Shown here one piece after another: positions 9,985 through 18,479 of a stretch of DNA of 32,000 nt. Numbering within the stretch: position 1 is the stretch's first letter; every line of letters starts with the position of its first letter. Position numbers and translations under genes: made by a program. Below the pieces are notes generated by a model that was not told the origin of the DNA, ran no database searches, and was given only the letters and a program-made list of their open reading frames with translations. The stretch is from Pyrobaculum arsenaticum DSM 13514 (GTDB lineage: Archaea > Thermoproteota > Thermoprotei > Thermoproteales > Thermoproteaceae), in the NCBI RefSeq assembly GCF_000016385.1, contig NC_009376.1, forward strand, positions 1,972,179 to 2,004,178. The letters are read 5' to 3'.

Positions 9985-10314
9985 TCTCTTCCCGAATATG
10001 CACAGCTAAACAACCCATAGGCGGCTTGAGCCATGGATCCTATTCCTCATCATGAGGTTGAGCAGTGGAGGTTTAGGCGGCTTGACAGCGACATGCGCCT
10101 TCACTTTATCACAACCCATGTACTTACCACGTAGCGACAGTAGGCGTCACTTACAATACAGTAGGTAAACGCGGCGTCGGGGACTGGCAACAACTCTTAG
10201 GACCAGATGTGGACGCCGAACAAACGGCGAGTTTGACGATACCGGAAGGCGAGAGGCGGACAGTCAAAACTCGGAGGCGGGCATGCCGGCGCGGCGCAAG
10301 CGCCGTGGGTGGGC

Positions 10315-11361
10315 CTATCTGCTGTAGCCTACTCCGTCTACTTCTAGTACATATCTTGCCGCCTGTTTTTCCACCTTGAACTTCACTGGCAAGAACTGCT
10401 CCACGATGTAGATGTTTGTCTTGAGGTGCATAGTCTCTTCTGATGTGCTCAGCCTGCTCCTCCCGTCGGCCAGTGCCATGTACACAACTGCCATGTCGGC
10501 CATGTGGGGGTCCAACGTGGCGCCGGTTTTAAGCACGGCGGCAAGCTTCTCGGCGGCTTCGCGGCCAACTACCTCGGCGGGCTTTCCCTTCTCTCCTAAT
10601 GAGTCCCCGCCTACGGTGCTTCCGCTTTCCGAGTAGGCCCAGAGGACAACACCGCTGCCGGGGCCAAGGCCGTCGGCCCGCACCTCCGTTGATATCTCGG
10701 CTCTGTACCCCAGCTTTGCCAAGACTTCGGCGGCCGCCCTAGCCTGCCTCTCCGCCACGTGGCTCGGGAGATTTACGGCATGGGATATCCCGCGTATTTC
10801 CAGTACCTTCCCGAACTCTTCTAAACTCACGGGTGAGAGCTTTTTCACCGGCTCTACTCTCAGCACCGCCCTCCCCCCTCCTTTGGGGTAGTGGCCACGC
10901 CTTATAAGCTCTATCTCCACCCTTGCGCCGAATAGGGATAAGACCTTTGCGAATACAAACCGCATATAGTCGATGGGAGGCGACCACGACACGTCCGTGC
11001 CGCCGGAGATGGCTATTCGGGTGGGGCACGGGGCGAACAGCAAAACCGGGGCGAGGGTCTGGACAACTAGGGAGATGCTACCAGCAGTGCCTATGTCTAT
11101 GTCGAAGGACCCACACTTAATGTCCCTGGGCTTGAAGAACAGCCTCGTGGAGCCCTTAACGGCTCCCTCCACTTCGGCGTCTGTAAGCAAGGCGGCGGCC
11201 CTCACGCCGGTGAGGTGCTGCGGCTGGAGCCCCGGGTTCGCCCTCTTAGCCCGTATGTTTATTATCTCCACAGGCTTGCCCAAGAGAGCGGATAAGGCAA
11301 TTGACGTCCGCAAAATTTGGCCTCCGCCCTCCCCGTAGGAGCCGTCGATCCGGACAACCAC
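10315..11361 (-). CDS. rtcA: RNA 3'-terminal phosphate cyclase
   Basis: N-terminal [22 protein letters not shown] is the RtcA signature. I moved the start to the in-frame GTG at 11361 because the listed ATG at 11457 lies beyond the shared TATA box and inside psmB. Confidence 0.9.
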
Positions 11362-11385
11362 GTCTCGTTCTAGGAACGTGATATA

Positions 11386-11393
11386 TTTATAAA
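11386..11393. promoter_or_regulatory. Palindromic TATA box shared by divergent rtcA and psmB
   Basis: TTTATAAA is its own reverse complement. Its near edges lie about 20 nt (psmB ATG 11414) and about 24 nt (rtcA GTG 11361) from the two start codons. Confidence 0.55.
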
Positions 11394-11413
11394 TGAGAAG
11401 TGTGGCGAAGCCC

Positions 11414-12025
11414 ATGGGAGAGGAGGTGCAGATTGGGGCAACTGCAGTTGGCATCAAGGCGAAAGATGGGGTTGTCCTAGCCGCTGAGAAGCGGGTCTCG
11501 TACGGGTTCTACACTCTCAGCTCCGCGGGGAGAAAAGTATTCGTAATCGACGACAAGTTGGCTATAGCGTCGGCAGGCATAATTGCCGATATGCAGTCCC
11601 TGGCCCGGATCGTTAAGATCAACGCCAAGGCGTATGAACTGGAGACGAGGAAGAAGCCAACTGTCAGGTCGATGGCTAAACTGCTCTCGGTGATTATGTT
11701 TAGCAGGAGGTATATGCCGTTTTTCGCAGAGGTGCTAGTAGGTGGCGTAGACGAAGAGGGTAGCCATCTAATCGTGATGGATCCCCTCGGCAGTTTGATC
11801 GAGGACAACTACGCCGCCTTGGGCACCGGCGCTAAACTCGCCATCTCCGTGCTGGACACGGGCTACAGGGAGGACATAACTCTTCAGGATGCTAAGAAAC
11901 TCGCGGTGAAGGCTCTGAAAGCGGCAATTGAAAGAGACCCTGTCTCGGGGGGCGGCATAGATCTGGTATTGATTGACCAGACAGGTGCAAAGGAGGAGGA
12001 GGTCAAAGTACAGCTACTGATATAG
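11414..12025 (+). CDS. psmB: Proteasome subunit beta
   Basis: [20 protein letters not shown] and the overall Ntn-hydrolase beta-subunit pattern. The upstream ATG at 11393 overlaps the TATA box itself, so ATG 11414 is preferred. Confidence 0.9.
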
Positions 12026-12086
12026 CAGGACAGATTGGATAGCTACCTCTGTTATACAGCTTCTAAAAAGAGAAGAAAAACAGGAG

Positions 12087-12986
12087 TTATTGACCCTTTA
12101 GTTTGGATATCTTGTTTATAAGTATCGGCACTATTTTGTATAGATCCTCCACGACGCCATAATCGGCGTTTTGGAATATCGGTGCGGAGGGGTCGTTGTT
12201 TATTGCGGCTATGATTCTGCTCTCCAATATGCCGGCTATGTGCTGGGGCTGTCCGGATATCCCTATGGCGAGGTACAATTTGGGCTTTACTTTTTTACCC
12301 GATAGGCCGACCCAGTGCTCCTCCGGTAGCCACTTGAGGTCGGCGGCGATGGGGCGGGAGCACCCTACTTGGCCGCCCATGATCTTGGCCAGTTCGAAGG
12401 CCATCTGCAAGTCCTCCTTCTTCTTAAAGCCTCTGCCCACTGAGACGATTATCTCCGCCTCCTCCAGCTTCACGGCCCCTCTGGCCTTCTCCTCAACTGA
12501 CACTATCCTCGTCTTGGGCGTAGTGTCCAGCTGGAGCTTCTCTACAGATGTCTGTACCGCCGGCGGCTCTCCTTGGAATCTGCCAGGCGGAACAGTGACG
12601 ACGACAGGGAGCGGGACCTCTATCGTAGCCACCGCCTTGTTTCCGAAGACGTACCTCTCCGCCTTGAGAGATCCGCCCTCTACTCGGAGGGAGGTCGCGT
12701 CTACTATTAGCTCTGCGCCGAGCCTCTGGGCGAGGAGGCCGCCCACAGTCTTGCCGTTTTTAGTAGATGGCAACAACACGACGTCTACGCCTTGCGCAAC
12801 CCTCGATGCTGCCTCGGCAACGGCCTCCGGTAACCTTACATCTACATTTGCCACGACCACCCTATGCGCCTTGCCCTTGATCCCCTCTGCCTCGCCCTCG
12901 TTGAAGACCAGGGCTACCACTTCCCCGCCAAGTGTTGATGCTACGTAGAGTAGCTCCTTGGTGGGGTATACTACCAGCGTCTTCAT
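12087..12986 (-). CDS. etfA: Electron transfer flavoprotein subunit alpha
   Basis: C-terminal FAD-binding signature PKLYLAIGISGQPQHIAG. Overlaps the etfB stop by 4 nt. Confidence 0.9.
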   Translation of the reverse strand: MKTLVVYPTKELLYVASTLGGEVVALVFNEGEAEGIKGKAHRVVVANVDVRLPEAVAEAASRVAQGVDVVLLPSTKNGKTVGGLLAQRLGAELIVDATSLRVEGGSLKAERYVFGNKAVATIEVPLPVVVTVPPGRFQGEPPAVQTSVEKLQLDTTPKTRIVSVEEKARGAVKLEEAEIIVSVGRGFKKKEDLQMAFELAKIMGGQVGCSRPIAADLKWLPEEHWVGLSGKKVKPKLYLAIGISGQPQHIAGILESRIIAAINNDPSAPIFQNADYGVVEDLYKIVPILINKISKLKGQ

Positions 12987-13753
12987 ATCACTCCCTCCTG
13001 CTTTAGGTATTGTATGAGCTTCTCCGCTTTTTCTTCAGGCGTCCCGTCCTTAATCACAACCTTCTTTCTCTGCATCAACAACGGCCTATAGGCCGCCGAC
13101 ACCCTAGGCTCCACGGTTATACCAAGGTCGGCAAGGGTTAGCTTGTTGATCGGCTTTTTCATGGCCGCCCTTATTGCCAGGAGGGTGGGTATCCTGGGCT
13201 GGTTTATCTCCCTCGTCACTGATACAACTGCGGGGAGGGGCACCTCCACCACCTCTACGTGGTCTTCCAGATCGCGCTTCGCCACCAGCTTTCCGCCCTC
13301 CACCTTAAGCTCCCTGACGTAGGTGACCACCGGCCAGCCCAACTCGGCGGCTACCCTCGGCGGTATCTGCCCCGTGTAGTTGTCCACAGTGGCCTCGCCG
13401 GCGAGTACCAAGTCTGCGCCCACCTTTTTCACCACCGCGGCAATCGCCTTAGCCGTGGCAGCGTGGCTGGCGTTTATCAACTTCTCGTCGGCTACTAGGT
13501 AGGCCTCGTCTAGCCCCATCGCCAACGCCTCCCTCAACACGTTCTCAGCCTCCTGTATCCTCCTCTGCAACGGGCCCCATTTTAAGACAGTTACGCCATA
13601 TGCCTTGTCTTGGCCCTTCAGCTTAACAGCCTCCTCCACCGCGTTTCTGTCTATGTCGCTTATCTTTAGCGGGGTCTCCTCCACCACCACCGTGTCCCTC
13701 ACCCGGAGCTGGCTAGTGTCAAGAGCTGTCTTCATGAGTACAGCTATTTTCAT
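12983..13753 (-). CDS. etfB: Electron transfer flavoprotein subunit beta
   Basis: N-terminal MKIAVLMK..D and overall similarity to ETF beta. Translationally coupled to etfA. Confidence 0.85.
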   Translation of the reverse strand: MKIAVLMKTALDTSQLRVRDTVVVEETPLKISDIDRNAVEEAVKLKGQDKAYGVTVLKWGPLQRRIQEAENVLREALAMGLDEAYLVADEKLINASHAATAKAIAAVVKKVGADLVLAGEATVDNYTGQIPPRVAAELGWPVVTYVRELKVEGGKLVAKRDLEDHVEVVEVPLPAVVSVTREINQPRIPTLLAIRAAMKKPINKLTLADLGITVEPRVSAAYRPLLMQRKKVVIKDGTPEEKAEKLIQYLKQEGVI

Positions 13754-13944
13754 AGCCGCCTCTTTTTGAGCACTTTTTTAAGGTGAATATTGCCAATAGT
13801 AGAAATCTTTCAATACAACTCGCGGCGTGGCAACACCGGAGGCCCATGCCTGCTGAGTTAAGATAAGGCCCAGCCTCCTCTGTCTGTGACGGCCTACGAG
13901 ATAACCCAATCCGGTAGCGTCTTGCTCGCAAAGCGACGCTACAG

Positions 13945-14307
13945 TTATTCGCAGAATAGGCCGTAGTCGTCGGCTAGAACCACGCGGTGTTTTAAGGCCT
14001 CGCGCCACCAAGGTTTTTCCAGAGCCTTCGCCGCCTCTTCCGGCGTCCAGCAGATGGCCTCCACCCTCGGCGGGGCGTCGAGCAACGCAACGCAACGGGT
14101 CACGAAGTCAGTGCCTCAAAACCGCTCGGATACAATTATCACGTCGATGTCGCTCCACAAATTGAAGTCGCCCCTGGCGTACGAGCCGTAGAGCACGGCT
14201 GTTAGTTTGCCCCACCTCGCCCTCAGCGCCTCCACGTACCTCTTTACTCCCTCAATTACCTCCTCCCGCTCCCGCGTCCTTTTTCTTATTATCTCCTCTA
14301 TCGACAT
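13945..14307 (-). pseudogene. Minimal nucleotidyltransferase (MNT, antitoxin-type) interrupted by an in-frame TGA
   Basis: The NTase core GSYARGD..SDIDVIIV is followed by SERF and a TGA at 14116-14118. The same frame then stays open for 56 more codons (GTDFVTRCVALLDAPPRVEAICWTPEEAAKALEKPWWREALKHRVVLADDYGLFCE) to a TAA at 13945-13947, which looks like the normal MNT C-terminal half. Confidence 0.7.
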
Positions 14308-14351
14308 GGGGAACAGCCCTTAACCCAGCCGATTACCTGCTCGGCGCACTC

Positions 14352-14714
14352 CTACGCCTTAGCCGCCTCCTCTTCCGTATACCGCTCGTAGGGGACGCCC
14401 TCGGTCAAGGCATCTGGGTACCTAGGCGTTAGGCACATCTTATCCAGATAGCCGACGCAGAACCTCAGCTCCCCGCCAGTTGTGGGGCACAGCCCAGCCA
14501 GCTCGTTAAACAGCGCAACTAAGTTGTGGCCAAACGCAGGCCGCCCTAGCGCCCGTAGCAACGCCCTAGTTGCAAACTCAGCGGCTTGTTGCGCCTTGAA
14601 GCAGGCCCATGAGTAGGACCCGATGTCCAAGTCAGCCCGTATAGACTGTAAAGTATGCTCAGCCTGCCTCATCCACCTCCAGTACTCATAGCAGACCAGC
14701 ACAATCCTTCCCAT
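14352..14714 (-). CDS. HEPN domain protein (toxin partner of MNT)
   Basis: WRWMRQAEHTLQSIRADL followed by an Rx4H motif (GRPAFGH). The start is ambiguous between 14750, 14714 and 14672. TATATAAAA at about 14722-14730 argues against 14750. Confidence 0.75.
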   Translation of the reverse strand: MGRIVLVCYEYWRWMRQAEHTLQSIRADLDIGSYSWACFKAQQAAEFATRALLRALGRPAFGHNLVALFNELAGLCPTTGGELRFCVGYLDKMCLTPRYPDALTEGVPYERYTEEEAAKA

Positions 14715-14799
14715 TTGCAGTTTTATATACAACACACGGCTGGGCTTCAACTCTTCTTGAACACGCTATGAAGAAGGCCTCGCTTCTGTGGATGTGGGG
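14665..14799. repeat. Direct repeat DR1, copy A: diverged nop2 3' end plus the real HEPN 5' end
   Basis: 14767-14799 is identical to 16753-16785 (33/33, checked base by base). Colinear blocks of weaker similarity continue leftward to about 14665: CCGTGT, TGTGCTGG and AGTACT.GAGGTGGA. Confidence 0.8.
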
Positions 14800-14810
14800 A
14801 TACACATGCA

Positions 14811-14963
14811 TTAACGTATGATATAAACTAAGAAGACAATTGCCGACGCCGTAACAGCCGCTGCAACGGCTAATTGGAGCGAGCTTTTTACAAATTTATA
14901 GACCTCGTTATATACATACGCCGCCAAACCGGCTAACACGCCGACGGCAACCACGTCAAACAC
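14811..14963 (-). CDS. Unannotated 50-aa hydrophobic peptide with two predicted TM helices
   Basis: Hand translation gives (V/M)FDVVAVGVLAGLAAYVYNEVYKFVKSSLQLAVAAAVTASAIVFLVYIIR then TAA. The GTG start lies 2 nt after the stop of the upstream ORF. It falls below the 60-aa cutoff of the ORF track. Confidence 0.3.
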   Translation of the reverse strand: MFDVVAVGVLAGLAAYVYNEVYKFVKSSLQLAVAAAVTASAIVFLVYIIR

Positions 14964-14964
14964 A

Positions 14965-15321
14965 CTATGCTATACGGGCTAATTTTATAAGCTTTAACTT
15001 ATCAAGCCTATATCCTCTTGTAGCTATGTAGTAGCAGACTTCGCACGGCATTTTGAAATCTTTGTTCACCTCAATGCCGTGTTCTTTTAATATAGCAAGA
15101 GGGCCGGCATATCTCAATGCAAGAACCAACGCGTTTCTCCTAATTCTCTTTACTATATCTACAAGCGAGTCTTGCGAGATATTGCCCACCTTAAAAAACC
15201 ACTGTGCCTCACTCTGAGTTATTGGATGGCCGCAACAATACATAGCATCACCATTAGGAAGGATGGTCAGCCTAGCCCCAGCTTTCGCCATAAAGTTTTT
15301 TGCGAATTTTTGAGCTTTCAT
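14965..15321 (-). CDS. Degenerate SPASM/twitch-like Cys-containing ORF (possible radical-SAM accessory-domain remnant)
   Basis: KAGARLTILPNGDAMYCC resembles the C-x-AG...PdGdv.pC segment of SPASM domains, but K replaces the first Cys. It has a CEVC pair but lacks the remaining Cys residues. Only about 17 codons are open upstream, so no radical-SAM core is attached. About 42% GC. Confidence 0.35.
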   Translation of the reverse strand: MKAQKFAKNFMAKAGARLTILPNGDAMYCCGHPITQSEAQWFFKVGNISQDSLVDIVKRIRRNALVLALRYAGPLAILKEHGIEVNKDFKMPCEVCYYIATRGYRLDKLKLIKLARIA

Positions 15322-15832
15322 GACGATGGCCCAGCACAGGTGGAGGAAACACAGATTTTCGCTCGTTATCCTTTACCTAATTTCCGTCGGCGTAATAGCT
15401 TTAGGGATCTTCCACTTCTATTTGCACAGCGTAAATCCTCCAAAAGAGCCTATGGCGCGCCTAGGGCCTTATCTGGTCATAGGAACGGGGCTGGCGGCGA
15501 TGGCTACTATCCCTTTGTTGGAGCCTGTCCGCGCTGTTGTGAGGCGCGGCGAGATTATCCTCAAGACTCGTTGGCTTACTAAGAGAATCACAGGCTTCAG
15601 GGTGGTGAAGAAGTTCTCCACGTCGGAGCTCTTGAACTACGTCTACATGTGCCCCGTGGGGTGGCGCCTCGACCTCTGGTCTCTTTACGGCATCTGCTCC
15701 ACTGCGTTTGGGAGGGCGGTCGCGTTTTCTACGCCTTCCTGTTCCGACGAGTGGATAGTGGTAGAGGCAGACAGCAAGCGGTATGTAATATGTTGCGAAG
15801 AGGAGGATAGGGAGATATGCGCAGGTTTATAG
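15320..15832 (+). CDS. Membrane protein with two N-terminal TM helices and a Cys-rich C-terminal domain (hypothetical)
   Basis: Hydrophobic segments FSLVILYLISVGVIALGIF and YLVIGTGLAAMATIPLL are followed by a soluble part containing 6 Cys. Overlaps the next ORF by 16 nt. Its ATG overlaps the divergent ATG of 14965..15321 (CATG). Confidence 0.5.
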   Translation: MTMAQHRWRKHRFSLVILYLISVGVIALGIFHFYLHSVNPPKEPMARLGPYLVIGTGLAAMATIPLLEPVRAVVRRGEIILKTRWLTKRITGFRVVKKFSTSELLNYVYMCPVGWRLDLWSLYGICSTAFGRAVAFSTPSCSDEWIVVEADSKRYVICCEEEDREICAGL

Positions 15833-16557
15833 CGGTGACCTTCGGCTTAGGGTGGGCTTTTCAGTTTGCCCATCCCACCTCCTACTTCTGGCTGGCCGCC
15901 GCTATGTGGGCGCCTGCACTGGGCGCGCTTGCTGAGGGGTTTAGGCCCCCGCCCCCGGCGCTGACCGCCGGGAGGAGGATAAGTTACTGGAAGTCTGTGT
16001 GGCCGATTGCGCTGTGGGTCGCCCTATTGGTGGCCTCCACGTTGCCATTTCAGCCCGTCCAGCCCCAGGCGGCGCCGAGCCACTTAATGTACTTGCTCAC
16101 AGCACCCTTTATGCCCGCAGTGGTGGCATTTATAGGCGCCTTTGGCGAGGAGTACGGCTGGCGGGGCTATTTACTGCCAGCCCTCGCCCAGAGGCTTGGC
16201 TACTTCAAGGCGTCTCTCATGGTGGGGGTTGTGTGGGGTTTTTGGCACACGCCGGCTATCGGCTATGAGTACGGCTGGTTTTGGCGCGTTGAGGGCGTGC
16301 TCCTCTTTGTCCTTCCCACTATTCTCCTCTCCCTACTCCACACAGCGGCTTATTTACAATACGGCGTATGGGGGGCCGCATTGCTACATGGGGCCGTCAA
16401 CTCGTGGGCGCCTACGTACTTTCTTCTGTATCCACAGCTCTTAGATGAGAGGTGGCTCTGGGGACCTGTAGGTCTTCAAGGCGTTGCAACCCTCATACCC
16501 GTGGCTTGGATAGTCTGGAAGATGTACGCACGCAGTGTTGACAAAACGCCGCCCTGA
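15817..16557 (+). CDS. CPBP family intramembrane glutamic endopeptidase (CAAX protease / Abi family)
   Basis: All three family motifs are present: GEEYGWRGYLLP (EExxxR), FWHTP (FxxxH) and HGAVN (HxxxN), in a polytopic membrane protein. Confidence 0.85.
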   Translation: MRRFIAVTFGLGWAFQFAHPTSYFWLAAAMWAPALGALAEGFRPPPPALTAGRRISYWKSVWPIALWVALLVASTLPFQPVQPQAAPSHLMYLLTAPFMPAVVAFIGAFGEEYGWRGYLLPALAQRLGYFKASLMVGVVWGFWHTPAIGYEYGWFWRVEGVLLFVLPTILLSLLHTAAYLQYGVWGAALLHGAVNSWAPTYFLLYPQLLDERWLWGPVGLQGVATLIPVAWIVWKMYARSVDKTPP

Positions 16558-16660
16558 CGCCCAGAATAGCGCTCACGGCGCGAGCCCCGCCGCATGTCGC
16601 GCCTCGAGGCAGGCCTAAGCGCAGGTCCTTATAATTGGCGCATGTAGGCCACGGAGTAGA

Positions 16661-16785
16661 CCCCCCGTCCACCTCTAGTACTTGTCGCGGCCCAGCACAG
16701 TTCCTCTATTTAAGACACGGGTGGCGTACGCCTATCTTTTCCTCAAGCGCGATATGAAGAAGGCCTCGCTTCTGTGGATGTGGGG
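16661..16785. repeat. Direct repeat DR1, copy B: real nop2 3' end plus a decayed HEPN 5' fragment
   Basis: The 33-nt core at 16753-16785 encodes PHIHRSEAFFI of nop2. The adjacent 16661-16752 aligns in blocks with the HEPN promoter and first codons, reading TVLGRDKY*RW against IVLVCYEYWRW. Confidence 0.8.
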
Positions 16786-17976
16786 GAAGGTTCTCCCGCC
16801 GACGCCGGGCGTGTACGACGGGGCGAGGTCAGGATGGGGCTTTTCCGCCTCTGCGCCGGCAGACGCCGCCACCTCTTCGCCTTCTTGTGGAAGGATGCTA
16901 CAGACGGCGTACACCACCTCCTCTGCCAGCGCCAATGCGTTTTTGATGAGGGCCTTCTGCACGGCGGAGTACTTAGGCGCCTCCTCGACCCGGGGGTATA
17001 TCTTTACGGCGGGCTCCTTGGTGAACGCCCCGCTGGAGGTGCAAGGCGCGTCTAGAAGCGCCTTGTCGAACTTCCTTGTCTTTAAGACCCGAGAGTCTGC
17101 CCTGACGACCTCTACAAAGTCCCCTGCTCCTAGGTTTTTCAGGAGGTGCCTCATCCTCGCAACGCGCTTCGCCGAGAGGTCCACGGCAACGATTTTGGCT
17201 CTTCCCTCCGCTAGCTGGGCTATTAGGCTGGTCTTCATCCCCGGCGCCGCGGCGAGGTCGATTATCCTGTCGCCAGGCTCTGGCCTAAGCGAAAGCACGG
17301 CGTATATTGAGGCCAGGTCTTGGGGAACGGCCACAAACCGCCTCACGGCCTCTAGGTACTGGACAGGCCTCTTAGCTGATTTAAGCAACACGGCGAAGGG
17401 AATTTTAGGATGGGGCTCCACCTCGGCCTCGGCCTCCAACAGCCTCAACGCCTTGTCCACGTCCGCCTTCAGCGTGTTTATCCTCAGCCAAATCCAGGTG
17501 TGATTCCCCGCTTCTAGCAACCTCTCCACTTCCTCCGGCGGGAAATGCGACAGCAGTGTCGACACTATGTTGGGGTGATAGCTGTACTTCACCGAGAAGT
17601 ATCTGGCGCGATCCTCCCTTAACTCCTCCAACGCCGCCATTACGTGGTCCGGCTTTGTCAGAGCCCTTTTTAACAGCCGTTTCCGCACGCTGTAAACCAT
17701 GTCTTTGTTGTAGAGGAGAGAGTCTGCCCTAAAAATAAACCACGCCTTAGCTATGGCTTTTGCGCCAGAAGAGCCGAACATCTTCGAAGCGGCGAATTGG
17801 AGAAAATAGTAATGGCGCACAGCGTCGTAGACCACGTCGTAAAATACCTTGAAGCTATCTAACTCACGCCACCCCCTCTTTACCTTTTGAAAAGCGTAGT
17901 CAAGAGTAAGACCTTTGCTTATTTCGTAGAGAACCTTGGCAGTGAAGGATATCAGCTCTCCAGGAGTCCACTTCAC
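16732..17976 (-). CDS. NOL1/NOP2/Sun family RNA cytosine-C5 methyltransferase
   Basis: SAM-binding DLAAAPGMKTS and catalytic DAPCTSSG motifs. The start is set to the in-frame GTG at 17976, which overlaps the upstream stop (GTGA). The listed ATG at 18054 would overlap the upstream gene by 82 nt. Confidence 0.9.
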   Translation of the reverse strand: MKWTPGELISFTAKVLYEISKGLTLDYAFQKVKRGWRELDSFKVFYDVVYDAVRHYYFLQFAASKMFGSSGAKAIAKAWFIFRADSLLYNKDMVYSVRKRLLKRALTKPDHVMAALEELREDRARYFSVKYSYHPNIVSTLLSHFPPEEVERLLEAGNHTWIWLRINTLKADVDKALRLLEAEAEVEPHPKIPFAVLLKSAKRPVQYLEAVRRFVAVPQDLASIYAVLSLRPEPGDRIIDLAAAPGMKTSLIAQLAEGRAKIVAVDLSAKRVARMRHLLKNLGAGDFVEVVRADSRVLKTRKFDKALLDAPCTSSGAFTKEPAVKIYPRVEEAPKYSAVQKALIKNALALAEEVVYAVCSILPQEGEEVAASAGAEAEKPHPDLAPSYTPGVGGRTFPHIHRSEAFFISRLRKR

Positions 17977-18479
17977 GTGAGAAATACCAAATCGGCCTCC
18001 AGCTTCGCCAAGTCTATAAGGGCGTAGCTCGACCTGCCGGTTAGGCAACCGCACAGCTCCCCGGGGTTCACCACCAGCGTCCTCCCCCTCCTCTCCAGCG
18101 AGGCTTGGTGGGTGTGGCCGTAGATCACCACGTCGTAGAGGTCGGACTCAGCCAACGCCCTCAGCAACACGGGCGATGTGCCGTGGTACACCGCTATTTT
18201 CCTGCCGCTGACCTCCAGCTCCGCGGCGTCGCCAGCGATTTCAACGCCGTATTTCCGCGCCGTTTCTAGAAAATAGGGTCTCTCCCCCTCGTTGTTGCCC
18301 CATACGCCAACTATCCTTACCCCCTCGCCCACCGCCTCCCTTAAAAACCTAGCGGCAAATGGCGACACCCAGTCTCCGGCATGCAGGATCAGCTTAACCC
18401 CCCTGCGCCTCGCCTCCTCACCAACCCGCCTAATAGCTATGACGTTGTCATGGCTGTCTGAAATGGCAACCACTAGCAT
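17973..18479 (-). CDS. Metallophosphoesterase, YfcE/MJ0936 family
   Basis: Motifs VVAISDSHDN, HAGDW, GNNE and GHTH. Confidence 0.85.
   Translation of the reverse strand: MLVVAISDSHDNVIAIRRVGEEARRRGVKLILHAGDWVSPFAARFLREAVGEGVRIVGVWGNNEGERPYFLETARKYGVEIAGDAAELEVSGRKIAVYHGTSPVLLRALAESDLYDVVIYGHTHQASLERRGRTLVVNPGELCGCLTGRSSYALIDLAKLEADLVFLT

Follow-up and report, generated by a model that had tools for sequence, protein, structure and literature searches.

Does a segment of DNA lying between two perfect copies of the 3′ end of a host gene represent an element integrated at that end, or do the two copies have another origin? This question is raised by a locus of Pyrobaculum arsenaticum where the junction between the 3′ end of nop2, which encodes an RsmB-type RNA m5C methyltransferase, and the 5′ end of a HEPN gene occurs twice. 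The repeat is examined here in a window of 32,000 nt (the whole stretch of DNA that was analysed) and is probably the scar of the turnover of a HEPN-MNT toxin–antitoxin (TA) module downstream of nop2 rather than a pair of attachment sites. The features of the locus, in window coordinates, are the following.

13813–13949, no strand: spacer of 137 nt separating the etfB upstream region from the MNT_A end
13950–14799, minus strand: "A block", comprising MNT_A, HEPN_A with its promoter, and the terminal 57 nt of a nop2 gene
13948–14307, minus strand: MNT_A, nucleotidyltransferase of antitoxin type (PF01909), with the motif GSYARGDFNLWSDID
14352–14714, minus strand: HEPN_A (PF05168, E=4e-23), toxin-type, with RPAFGH as Rx4H motif
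14715–14766, minus strand: copy A intergenic region and diverged nop2 tail, with the putative TATA box of HEPN_A
14767–14799, minus strand: 33-nt core, copy A, the non-coding relic of a nop2 3′ end
14800–14825, no strand: junction J2, AT-rich filler of 26 nt between the nop2-tail fragment and p50
14811–14963, minus strand: p50, small membrane-protein ORF, a trimmed homologue of a 75-aa gene of L034
14964–15291, minus strand: low-GC island remnant, with a C-terminal SPASM fragment of a radical SAM gene
15320–15832, plus strand: p170, membrane protein without assigned family, found with the CPBP gene in every case
15817–16557, plus strand: CPBP/Rce1-like intramembrane protease gene (PF02517, E=4e-14)
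16540–16541, no strand: deletion junction J1, where the CPBP 3′ end meets HEPN_B codon ~63
16536–16731, minus strand: resident TA remnant, i.e. the nop2-HEPN intergenic region and pseudo-HEPN_B codons 1 to ~63
16753–16785, minus strand: copy B of the 33-nt core, functional part of nop2 encoding PHIHRSEAFFI
16732–17976, minus strand: nop2, RNA m5C methyltransferase gene, 414 aa (PF01189, PF22458)

The preliminary description of this DNA correctly reported that the cores 14767–14799 and 16753–16785 are identical (33/33) and encode PHIHRSEAFFI on the minus strand, i.e. the C-terminal part of the 414-aa RsmB/NOP2-type methyltransferase (PF01189, E=4e-33). This exact 414-aa product is also called in other assemblies; an upstream GTG at 18054 would make it 440 aa. 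With one mismatch, the match extends to 36 nt (14764–14799 versus 16750–16785). The 33-mer is found twice in the 32-kb window, both times on one strand, and about 1e-11 chance pairs of such a repeat are expected by estimate in 32 kb. An assembly artefact can be ruled out, since the complete genome of P. oguniense TE7 and over 10 independent assemblies contain both copies, and since k=141 contigs span each copy with unique flanks. The copy B core is unchanged in L034 and P. oguniense, and the copy A core carries 2 mismatches in P. oguniense TE7 and likewise 2 substitutions in L052.

Homology extends well past the 33-mer. With the core left out, the left (HEPN-side) flanks align with a score of 34, versus 16.5 ± 2.3 in shuffled sequences (0/2000 reach 34), and positions 14525–14620 align with 16536–16628 with a score of 30, versus 9.3 ± 1.4 (0/3000 reach 30). 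In an oguniense-like contig, BLASTN gives 66% identity across 265 nt of the duplicated junction. This junction therefore covers about 250–275 nt (14525–14799 versus 16536–16785), spanning HEPN codons 1 to ~63, with an uneven identity (33/33 in the core, then 55–67%). The similarity had previously been placed on the side away from nop2, which holds, and given a length of about 100 nt, which is too short. Also upheld are the double occurrence of the nop2 3′ end/HEPN 5′ end junction, the decayed HEPN start in the copy beside nop2, the vestigial nop2 tail in the other copy and the lack of similarity on the other side of the cores, where the right flanks show no significant match (72/2000 shuffles).

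Among the characters of an element bounded by att sites, the locus displays direct repeats at the exact ends (33/33) but neither a recombinase nor foreign DNA filling the space between the repeats. No integrase or transposase was found among the Pfam families of the genes within 10 kb on either side, in agreement with the preliminary description, and the Pfam scan of the ORFs between the repeats yielded only SPASM and Rce1-like domains, hence no recombinase. At the locus itself, no tRNA was found as a target, Rfam gave no match, and viral contigs, phages and plasmids did not match; terminal inverted repeats are likewise lacking at the ends of the segment. An insertion sequence or transposon can be rejected, given the absence of inverted repeats and transposase and a duplication of 33–275 nt that is mostly diverged.

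In L034 and L041, which represent a sister Pyrobaculum lineage, the order nop2-HEPN (133/136 aa)-MNT (129 aa)-CPBP-p170-p75-AsnRS-like is contiguous, with intact HEPN and MNT genes, one nop2 tail and no radical SAM gene; CPBP, p170 and the p50 homologue keep both their order and their orientation. Window positions 15292–16540 are 86.8% identical to p170-CPBP of these genomes, the CPBP gene, at the same position, being 87% identical, and 14828–14963 is 92.6% identical to p75, a match restricted in p50 to these positions since both ends of p50 have been replaced. The synonymous divergence (dS) from L034 amounts to 0.37 (0.29–0.46) for CPBP and p170 pooled, and to 0.34 (0.28–0.41) for nop2, Metallophos and RPL5. 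Because the same order is found in L034 and L041, the genes of the supposed cassette (CPBP, p170 and p50) are, by this synteny, native neighbours of nop2 in the nop2-HEPN-MNT locus. L034 and L041 being 95–99% identical here, the ancestral order rests on one sister lineage and on the argument drawn from J1 (see below). In more distant species, neither the TA module nor CPBP was found behind nop2.

Thus, the 1.86 kb between the copies, earlier taken for unrelated DNA, is native except for the low-GC radical SAM remnant. The translated CPBP gene displays the protease motifs EEYGWRGY (EExxxR), FWH and HGAVN. Homologues of p170 adjoin CPBP in L034, L041 and L035, and p50-p170-CPBP form a conserved three-gene module that also occurs in another Pyrobaculum, in a different neighbourhood and without the radical SAM gene. 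The low-GC segment 14964–15291 (GC 41–46%), absent from L034, L041 and L035, is the only lineage-specific part between the copies and does not touch the repeats. It carries the radical SAM fragment (ORF 14965–15321, Pfam SPASM), which corresponds to an intact 332-aa ORF in L052; at the island, P. oguniense TE7 has 977 nt missing from the window, and the fuller island of L052 adds just a Tat-signal protein, a membrane peptide and the radical SAM gene.

These data bear directly on the proposal that an ancestral nop2-HEPN_A junction received the segment from p50 to pseudo-HEPN (14800–16752) as a cassette, through a crossover in the core, either by site-specific or by Campbell-type homologous entry, the incoming diverged junction restoring the nop2 end and displacing the original tail. 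The direct repeats lie exactly at both ends of this segment, further diverged homology exists on one side only, the low-GC part is clearly foreign, and the number of events would be similar to that of TA turnover if the donor were a conspecific haplotype with an L034-like arrangement. However, CPBP, p170 and p50 are syntenic in the sister lineage with the same dS as the flanks, whereas HEPN_A-MNT_A is the outlier; what would be an element arm is a gene truncated by a deletion, the other side of which is the native CPBP/MNT boundary. Furthermore, no recombinase, tRNA target, virus or plasmid match accompanies the segment. Entry of a cassette is therefore an unlikely history, and the integration by attP-like crossover first put forward for this locus is not supported, given the L034/L041 synteny, J1 and the dS values.

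J1 shows what happened beside nop2. In the alignment of the window, P. oguniense and L034, CPBP homology ends at window position 16540 (L034 position 10730), and the final ~6 codons of CPBP now enter the antisense pseudo-HEPN. About 570 nt present in L034/L041, i.e. the remainder of HEPN_B and all of MNT_B, are absent there, with a possible microhomology (GGTGTTG/GGTTGTG). As J1 joins the CPBP end to HEPN codon ~63, the pseudo-HEPN beside nop2 is, as read from this junction, a resident gene truncated by a deletion and not the arm of an element. What is left has decayed: P. oguniense HEPN residues 5–58 match 16698–16549 with 39% identity (tblastn), the remnant contains in-frame stops as well as 7-, 5- and 4-nt indels, and a five-way alignment indicates that the promoter is damaged by a 15-nt deletion following the TATA-like TTAAATA. 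The copy B nop2 tail and intergenic region match L034 at 36/40 positions. Over the 149 comparable HEPN sites, pseudo-HEPN_B is equally near the L034 HEPN and HEPN_A (unique changes: A 13, L034 13, B 25); the orthology of module B with the L034 module thus rests on position, J1 and the tail/intergenic region, not on HEPN sequence.

The out-of-place piece is, from its sequence, the 850-nt A block, which looks imported or like a long-diverged allele. Its colinear counterpart in L034/L041, MNT-HEPN-nop2 tail, shows just 78.6% nucleotide identity to it, and homology of the etfB upstream region to L041 stops at 13812. HEPN and MNT are adjacent in one operon, overlap in P. oguniense, L034 and L052, and carry in translation the catalytic motifs RPAFGH (Rx4-6H, HEPN) and GSYARGDFNLWSDID (GSx10DxD, MNT; GSYARCDF in the P. 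oguniense MNT). The PF05168 match lies at 14352–14750 and that of PF01909 at 14116–14307. Adjacency and motifs are those of a HEPN-MNT module, but the two genes are not both intact here: an in-frame TAG at 14352–14354 shortens HEPN_A, whose homologous frame runs on to 14301, and an in-frame TGA at 14116–14118 breaks MNT_A. Both positions are sense codons in P. oguniense (138-aa HEPN, 120-aa MNT); P. oguniense TE7 and L052 have the two genes intact. Copy A was initially seen as fronting a functional HEPN, but in this window HEPN_A is not clearly functional. A putative TATA box of HEPN_A (TATATAAAA, minus strand) lies at 14722–14730. The copy A nop2 tail, frameshifted in the window, is in frame in P. 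oguniense, where it ends in FFVARLR.

The age of module A distinguishes further between explanations. Its dS from L034 reaches 1.04 (bootstrap 0.81–1.62). A simple segmental duplication with complementary decay can be rejected on this value, to be compared with 0.34–0.37 for the neighbours, and on the heterogeneous identity. Slow decay of a simple duplication had already been dismissed; this dismissal stands, as the two TA copies are far older than the sister split (dS ~1 versus 0.35), but the crossover proposed in its place is not supported. A more elaborate version invokes a within-lineage tandem duplication that started just beyond p50 and ended 33 nt inside nop2, giving X-Y-X-Y, followed by deletion of the first p50-CPBP copy and of most of the second TA copy, complementary decay, and gene conversion that held the core identical. 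It would explain why the blocks are swapped with respect to L034 (X-Y having become Y-X-pseudoY) and why the nop2 tail is joined directly to the p50 end; the HEPN 5′ comparison is star-like, its pseudogene branch being about double the length of the others, and in P. oguniense the copies show gene conversion. However, a duplicate formed after the split should have a dS at or below the species-level value, and that of module A is about three times higher. The copy A tail and intergenic region (~56% identity to L034) is also too diverged for a neutral pseudogene of that age, the neutral window-oguniense divergence being ~9–10%, and on its left the A block ends at most ~5 codons from the MNT stop, with no trace of CPBP beside it. 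Such a duplication is accordingly improbable, to about the same degree as cassette entry.

The abrupt fall in identity at the core edge, first interpreted as the mark of an attP-like crossover, also occurs between true nop2 orthologues of different species, so that no crossover is needed. With L012, the nop2 ends differ at 2/33 core positions and at 9/21 of those that follow; with other species, at 3–6/33 and 11–15/21. That this step is a property of nop2 orthologues further weakens the case for cassette entry. Nevertheless, 0/33 is a low count for a donor at dS ~1 (orthologues 2–6/33), and it may still take some gene conversion, or recombination in the core, to account for it.

The turnover of a TA module would have proceeded as follows. 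In the ancestor common to both lineages, nop2, HEPN, MNT, CPBP, p170 and a p50-like gene followed one another. Module B then lost ~570 nt in the P. arsenaticum/P. oguniense lineage, after which the remaining ~63 codons and the promoter decayed. A second module, A, sits 2 kb away between p50 and etfB; it split from the module of the sister lineage about three times earlier than the surrounding genes did, and at its upstream edge it retains its promoter and the terminal ~57 nt of a nop2 gene. Module A would thus once have been directly behind nop2 in another genome or haplotype. The 26-nt filler at 14800–14825, without counterpart in L034 or nop2 in the alignment, and the trimmed gene ends at all three junctions suggest that illegitimate recombination placed it here; its arrival may have permitted, or come after, the loss of module B. 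The 33 nt are probably identical because they encode the most conserved stretch of the nop2 end, the bases beyond being presumably a variable C-terminal tail, an intergenic region and TA genes that evolve fast; occasional short conversion tracts exchanged by the copies would add to this identity. HEPN relatives 66–72% identical occur in other genomic contexts in Thermoproteus, Vulcanisaeta and Caldivirga, which fits a mobile TA module; these homologues in other genera show no nop2 linkage and no nop2 remnant. No candidate donor, in which module A would follow nop2 directly at real divergence, was identified, and this lineage alone has yielded the A-type allele.

Recombination at nop2 is also in keeping with TA turnover. 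The P. oguniense nop2 tail holds 4 copy-A bases within 15 nt, which shows exchange between the repeat copies, and the L041 nop2 is 75% identical in its 5′ half and 90% in its 3′ half, which shows recombination with diverged relatives inside nop2. The nop2 3′ core could alternatively be a recurrent recombination anchor for the exchange of HEPN-MNT alleles, with A, B and the L034 type as three deep alleles of one locus and the present structure as an exchange gone wrong. The three alleles are roughly equidistant and two share the same position; the breakpoint inside nop2 in other strains, the conversion tracts at the nop2 tail and the unusual nucleotide conservation of the core are all consistent with this. 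However, only 149 sites can be compared, in a decayed pseudogene, allele A is never seen in place behind nop2 except in L050, and the unlinked homologues of other genera lack any nop2 remnant, which makes such an anchor slightly less plausible still than a cassette or a tandem duplication.

L050 (Logan SRR9434188_225) is a single public 3.1-kb contig from a k=31 assembly that joins nop2 to HEPN_A through the 33-nt core and lacks 1,986 bp; its two sides match the window at 100% and 99.8% identity. It could be a repeat-mediated deletion allele, resulting from a recent deletion, or an assembly chimera. It resembles the precise loss of a segment through the core, a point in favour of cassette entry; however, its 100% identity to the window means that the deletion would be recent, such as any direct repeat can produce. 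The 33-nt nop2 end is least likely of all to be a genuine recombination site at which segments are precisely gained and lost by a recombinase encoded elsewhere, with L050 as a true excision product. The segments concerned would be alternative HEPN-MNT alleles or the p50-CPBP segment. Under TA turnover, the preferred explanation, the repeat has today no function of its own, its only possible role being that of a substrate for loss of the 1,986 bp.

The history of the nop2 locus is one of ordinary genome decay, and the case matters little outside the genus Pyrobaculum. Within the genus, the region downstream of nop2 is variable and prone to rearrangement, the HEPN-MNT pair of P. arsenaticum-type strains is a pseudogene pair, and a 1,986-bp deletion polymorphism may exist. 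More broadly, the locus is a worked example of a repeat-flanked "cassette" that resembles an integrated element in a single genome and that comparison with a sister lineage, together with a synonymous-rate test, identifies as native DNA between two generations of TA modules. It also illustrates that a step in identity beside a perfect core can reflect the conservation profile of the host gene and not a crossover.

Archaeal integrated elements with direct-repeat att sites include the SSV-type and pNOB8-type tyrosine recombinase elements. As in these elements, the direct repeats measure tens of nucleotides and one of them is the 3′ end of a host gene, kept intact. Unlike them, the locus lacks an integrase (whether complete or split) as well as a tRNA target and genes of viruses or plasmids, its inter-repeat DNA is mostly native and syntenic in the sister lineage, and one "arm" is a host gene truncated by deletion. 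In prokaryotes, foreign DNA can also be inserted by illegitimate or homology-facilitated recombination, and deletions can be mediated by microhomology. The gene ends trimmed by a few codons, the 26-nt filler and the passenger fragment of the donor's neighbouring gene are similar to those of illegitimate insertions, and the possible microhomology at the deletion junction recalls microhomology-mediated deletion; unlike in established cases of illegitimate insertion, the process is here deduced from three junctions and divergence values. L050, joining its flanks exactly through the core minus 1,986 bp, resembles deletions between short direct repeats by recombination or replication slippage.

The HEPN-MNT (HepT/MntA, type VII) TA modules turn over as mobile two-gene cassettes (PMC7641770, PMC11586414, PMC2701414). 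Here the scar, more than the module, is of interest: one copy is a 63-codon pseudogene and the other carries nonsense codons in this strain and a fragment of a neighbouring housekeeping gene. Like them, the locus displays adjacent, overlapping HEPN and MNT genes with Rx4H (RPAFGH) and GSx10DxD motifs, whose close homologues are scattered across genera and genomic contexts in copies that are variously decayed.

A 33-nt core occurs in two copies at nop2/HEPN junctions, copy A (14767-14799) beside HEPN_A and copy B (16753-16785) within nop2. As the preliminary description had claimed, all 33 nt are identical; a longer match of 36 nt has one mismatch, and the 33-mer has no further occurrence in the window. 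The chance expectation for a pair of such length in 32 kb is estimated at about 1e-11. Read on the minus strand, the core codes for PHIHRSEAFFI, a peptide close to the C-terminus of an RsmB/NOP2-type methyltransferase (PF01189, E=4e-33). The repeat is genuine: it is found in the finished genome of P. oguniense TE7 and in more than 10 other assemblies, which excludes an assembly artefact. The gene content around it is as follows.

ends at 13753, minus strand, etfB
13948-14307, minus strand, MNT_A (nucleotidyltransferase antitoxin), in-frame TGA at 14116-14118
14352-14714, minus strand, HEPN_A (toxin), in-frame TAG at 14352-14354
14715-14799, diverged nop2 tail and copy A core
14800-14825, AT-rich filler of 26 nt
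14811-14963, minus strand, p50 (membrane protein)
14965-15321, minus strand, SPASM fragment of low GC content
15320-15832, plus strand, p170 (membrane protein)
15817-16557, plus strand, CPBP/Rce1-like protease
16536 to about 16700, minus strand, pseudo-HEPN_B
16732-17976, minus strand, nop2

By domain content and motifs, both gene pairs belong to the HEPN-MNT (HepT/MntA, type VII) toxin-antitoxin (TA) family (PMC7641770, PMC11586414). HEPN_A and MNT_A are a pseudogene pair in P. arsenaticum DSM 13514: each has one nonsense codon (TAG and TGA) in the window and in every P. arsenaticum-type assembly, at positions where P. oguniense has the sense codons CGG and AGA. Module B, the pair next to nop2, is reduced to a fragment, pseudo-HEPN_B, whose promoter has lost 15 nt and whose frame is broken by three indels and by stops.

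Beyond the core, similarity between the copies is confined to the low-coordinate (HEPN) side, as previously described. Local alignment of the left flanks without the core scores 34 vs 16.5 +/- 2.3 for shuffles (0/2000), whereas the right flanks show no excess over shuffles (72/2000). A further homologous block, 14525-14620 vs 16536-16628, scores 30 vs 9.3 +/- 1.4 when shuffled (0/3000), residues 5-58 of the P. oguniense HEPN match 16698-16549 at 39% identity, and in an oguniense-like contig the junction copies share 66% identity over 265 nt (BLASTN). Since similarity extends through these blocks, the duplicated junction reaches further than first reported and spans about 250-275 nt, starting 33 nt ahead of the variable nop2 tail and ending at HEPN codon ~63.

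Two contigs stand for a sister Pyrobaculum lineage: L034 (ERZ1669405 NODE_20) and L041 (ERZ1669411 NODE_526), which are 95-99% identical to each other in the region and each 87-92% identical to the window. Both carry a single nop2 tail and lack the radical SAM gene; their gene row reads nop2, HEPN (133/136 aa), MNT (129 aa), CPBP (convergent), p170, a 75-aa p50 homologue (p75) and an AsnRS-like gene.

Alignment of the window to L034/L041 (window segment, counterpart, identity)
16729 onward, nop2 and upstream genes, 88%
15292-16540, p170-CPBP, 86.8%
14828-14963, p75, 92.6%
13950-14799 (module A), MNT-HEPN-nop2 tail, colinear, 78.6%

This gene order and these alignments argue that the genes between the cores, previously taken for an inserted cassette, are native neighbours of the nop2-HEPN-MNT unit. 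In a third Pyrobaculum, L035, a p50-like/p170-like/CPBP trio lies in a heme-biosynthesis neighbourhood (L035 9257-10861), also without the radical SAM gene; these three genes (window 14811-16557) form a conserved membrane module present in at least three Pyrobaculum lineages and two genomic contexts. More largely, gene content downstream of nop2 differs among all lineages examined, and relative to window 10215-13812, L041 (7008-10593) has the RTC-proteasome-etfA-etfB block in reverse; in more distant species, etfB, etfA and the proteasome gene are oriented as in the window.

Synonymous divergence from L034 (NG86, codon bootstrap, 95% intervals) indicates which piece is out of place. The dS is 0.34 (0.28-0.41) for nop2, Metallophos and RPL5 together and 0.37 (0.29-0.46) for CPBP and p170. 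As these values match, the segment between the repeats has shared its inheritance with nop2 ever since the sister lineage split off. For HEPN_A and MNT_A, using the intact P. oguniense genes, dS reaches 1.04 (0.81-1.62), so that module A split from the sister-lineage module about three times earlier. From this contrast, the supposed cassette is probably the resident and the A block (13950-14799) a newcomer, or else a long-separated allele. The earlier view that the repeat is not a simple duplication is upheld: a recent duplication within the lineage is ruled out as the source of module A by its dS, and in-lineage tandem duplication is an improbable origin of the repeat.

The nop2 tail and intergenic stretch of copy B match L034 at 36/40 positions, vs about 56% for copy A, which agrees with B being the in-place copy. 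HEPN sequence itself gives a star of three alleles (unique changes at 149 comparable 5' sites: A 13, L034 13, B 25), and orthology of pseudo-HEPN_B and the L034 HEPN is not demonstrable from it; the status of B as resident rests on position, on the junction J1 described below and on the tail/intergenic match. Alternatively, the star could reflect several deep HEPN-MNT alleles that are in circulation at the nop2 locus and swap by recombination. Consistent with such exchange, L041 and several P. arsenaticum-type genomes have a recombination (or rearrangement) breakpoint within nop2. Their nop2 5' half is a different one (window 17350-18054; L022, L041), with about 75% nucleotide identity vs about 90% in the 3' half, and has a ferredoxin/molybdopterin-oxidoreductase cluster upstream instead of Metallophos/RPL5.

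An empty site, proposed as a check on integration, was encountered in none of the relatives searched. One scan of species-representative genomes returned only P. oguniense, with the same architecture, and species about 72% identical, with different genes behind nop2. A degenerate core scan of metagenomes yielded 16 single-copy nop2 ends from other species, none followed by HEPN or CPBP, and exact-protein look-ups retrieved numerous P. arsenaticum-type assemblies, each of them carrying the complete structure.

The abrupt identity step at the core boundary had been read as the mark of a crossover between a chromosomal site and a diverged element-borne copy. True nop2 orthologues show the same step.

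Differences from the window nop2 (sequence, core, next 21 nt)
L012 nop2 end, 2/33, 9/21
L015 nop2 end, 3/33, 11/21
nop2 ends of other species, 4-6/33, 12-15/21
copy A, 0/33, 9/21

The step therefore need not involve a crossover: it lies where a strongly conserved motif-coding stretch gives way to the variable C-terminal tail of nop2, and a piece of nop2 taken from a diverged genome would produce it without any crossover in the core. Although the duplicated junction is real, integration of the intervening DNA is quite unlikely. The core is now under no special constraint, because substitutions in copy A since the split of the window from P. oguniense (none in the window, two in P. oguniense) fit the neutral divergence of about 9-10% in pseudo-HEPN_B (15/168). 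Furthermore, the P. oguniense nop2 tail, IARLRKR vs ISRLRKR in the window and L034, differs at 4/15 bases, all four being copy A bases (L001, the TE7 genome, 11300-11315 vs window 16738-16752), which indicates short gene conversion from the vestigial copy to the live nop2 in P. oguniense.

Three junctions bound the rearranged pieces. At J1 (16540/16541), CPBP 3'-end homology to L034 stops exactly at the would-be MNT start and is followed by HEPN codon ~63. The resident module has lost about 570 nt here, comprising all of MNT and the 3' portion of HEPN, by a deletion possibly at a GGTGTTG/GGTTGTG microhomology. At J2 (14799/14800), copy A runs out of nop2-derived sequence, the next 26 nt have no counterpart in nop2 or L034, and p50 homology then starts inside the C-terminal part of the L034 75-aa gene. 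At J3 (~13950), A-block homology to L034 ends within the last ~5 MNT codons, with no CPBP remnant beside it; 137 nt then separate it from the start of homology to the L041 etfB-upstream region at 13812. Gene ends are trimmed by a few codons at all three, which has the look of illegitimate joins surviving selection.

P. oguniense TE7 (about 96% nucleotide identity) is organised like the window but has an extra 977 nt of low-GC DNA, which complete a radical SAM gene that is split in that genome; its genome paper reports inversions and paREP-linked indels and nothing at the nop2/HEPN locus (PMC3558965). This island is larger still in L052, an oguniense-like metagenomic contig, where the radical SAM/SPASM ORF is intact (332 aa; weak best match, a YydG-type peptide epimerase) and is accompanied by genes for an 89-aa membrane peptide and for a 161-aa protein bearing a Tat-like signal. 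In the window, the radical SAM gene is cut down to a 118-aa SPASM fragment. The island (34-48% GC) lies between p50 and p170 (window 14964-15321; L001 12781-14075; L052 9700-11600) and resembles a decaying peptide-modification cluster adjoining the CPBP protease. In both P. oguniense and L052, HEPN_A (138-140 aa) and MNT_A (120 aa) are unbroken and the copy A core has two substitutions, its tail being in frame and ending in FFVARLR and a stop. In all P. arsenaticum-type assemblies, both copies are near-identical to the window.

One contig, L050 (Logan SRR9434188_225, 3,110 nt), joins window 17922-16750 (99.8%) to 14799-12826 (100%) within the core. Its order is nop2-HEPN_A-MNT_A-etfB, nop2 ends in FFIACSRRVEAQPCVVYKTANGKDCAGLL and a stop, and the intervening 1,986 bp are absent. 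It is either a deletion allele or a k=31 assembly chimera. Three Logan contigs of other runs start at window 14796, 30 nt inside the core, where a k=31 graph would be expected to break at a repeat. That L050 crosses the repeat suggests that the alternative branch is absent from that sample. As a candidate deletion allele, it would represent a loss by recombination or slippage between the repeats, recent because the sequence is identical to the window, and not an ancestral empty site. It does not discriminate between models, since any direct repeat can yield such a loss. The searchable literature does not mention its run accession.

Globally, the repeat is probably the scar of TA-module turnover, in which an incoming module would have carried along a piece of the neighbouring gene as a passenger; the picture would also include a deletion of the microhomology type and a low-GC island in decay. 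The preliminary interpretation was right about a duplicated junction that is no simple duplication, but not about direction or mechanism. Such turnover is an ordinary kind of genome evolution, undescribed for this locus in the searchable literature.

On a wider scale the HEPN-MNT family is mobile: homologues with 66-72% identity occur in Thermoproteus, Vulcanisaeta, Caldivirga and another Pyrobaculum context, away from nop2 and with no nop2 remnant. The nop2 tail is not a general companion of the family, no remnant lying upstream in Thermoproteus or the other Pyrobaculum context. One protein, P0137 (133 aa), fuses the HEPN body to the MNT C-terminal end and was apparently born by deletion between copies of the EEAxKAL motif common to HEPN and MNT.

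As previously stated, there are no terminal inverted repeats and no integrase or transposase families, the latter among genes within 10 kb either side. The window contains no tRNA, no Rfam family matches within 13500-17500, viral contigs match neither the core pattern nor the radical SAM protein, and the segment has no match in phage and plasmid collections. The locus resembles archaeal integrated elements in its direct repeats and in the host-gene end left intact. It differs from them in lacking a recombinase, foreign cargo adjoining the repeats, and relatives among viruses or plasmids.
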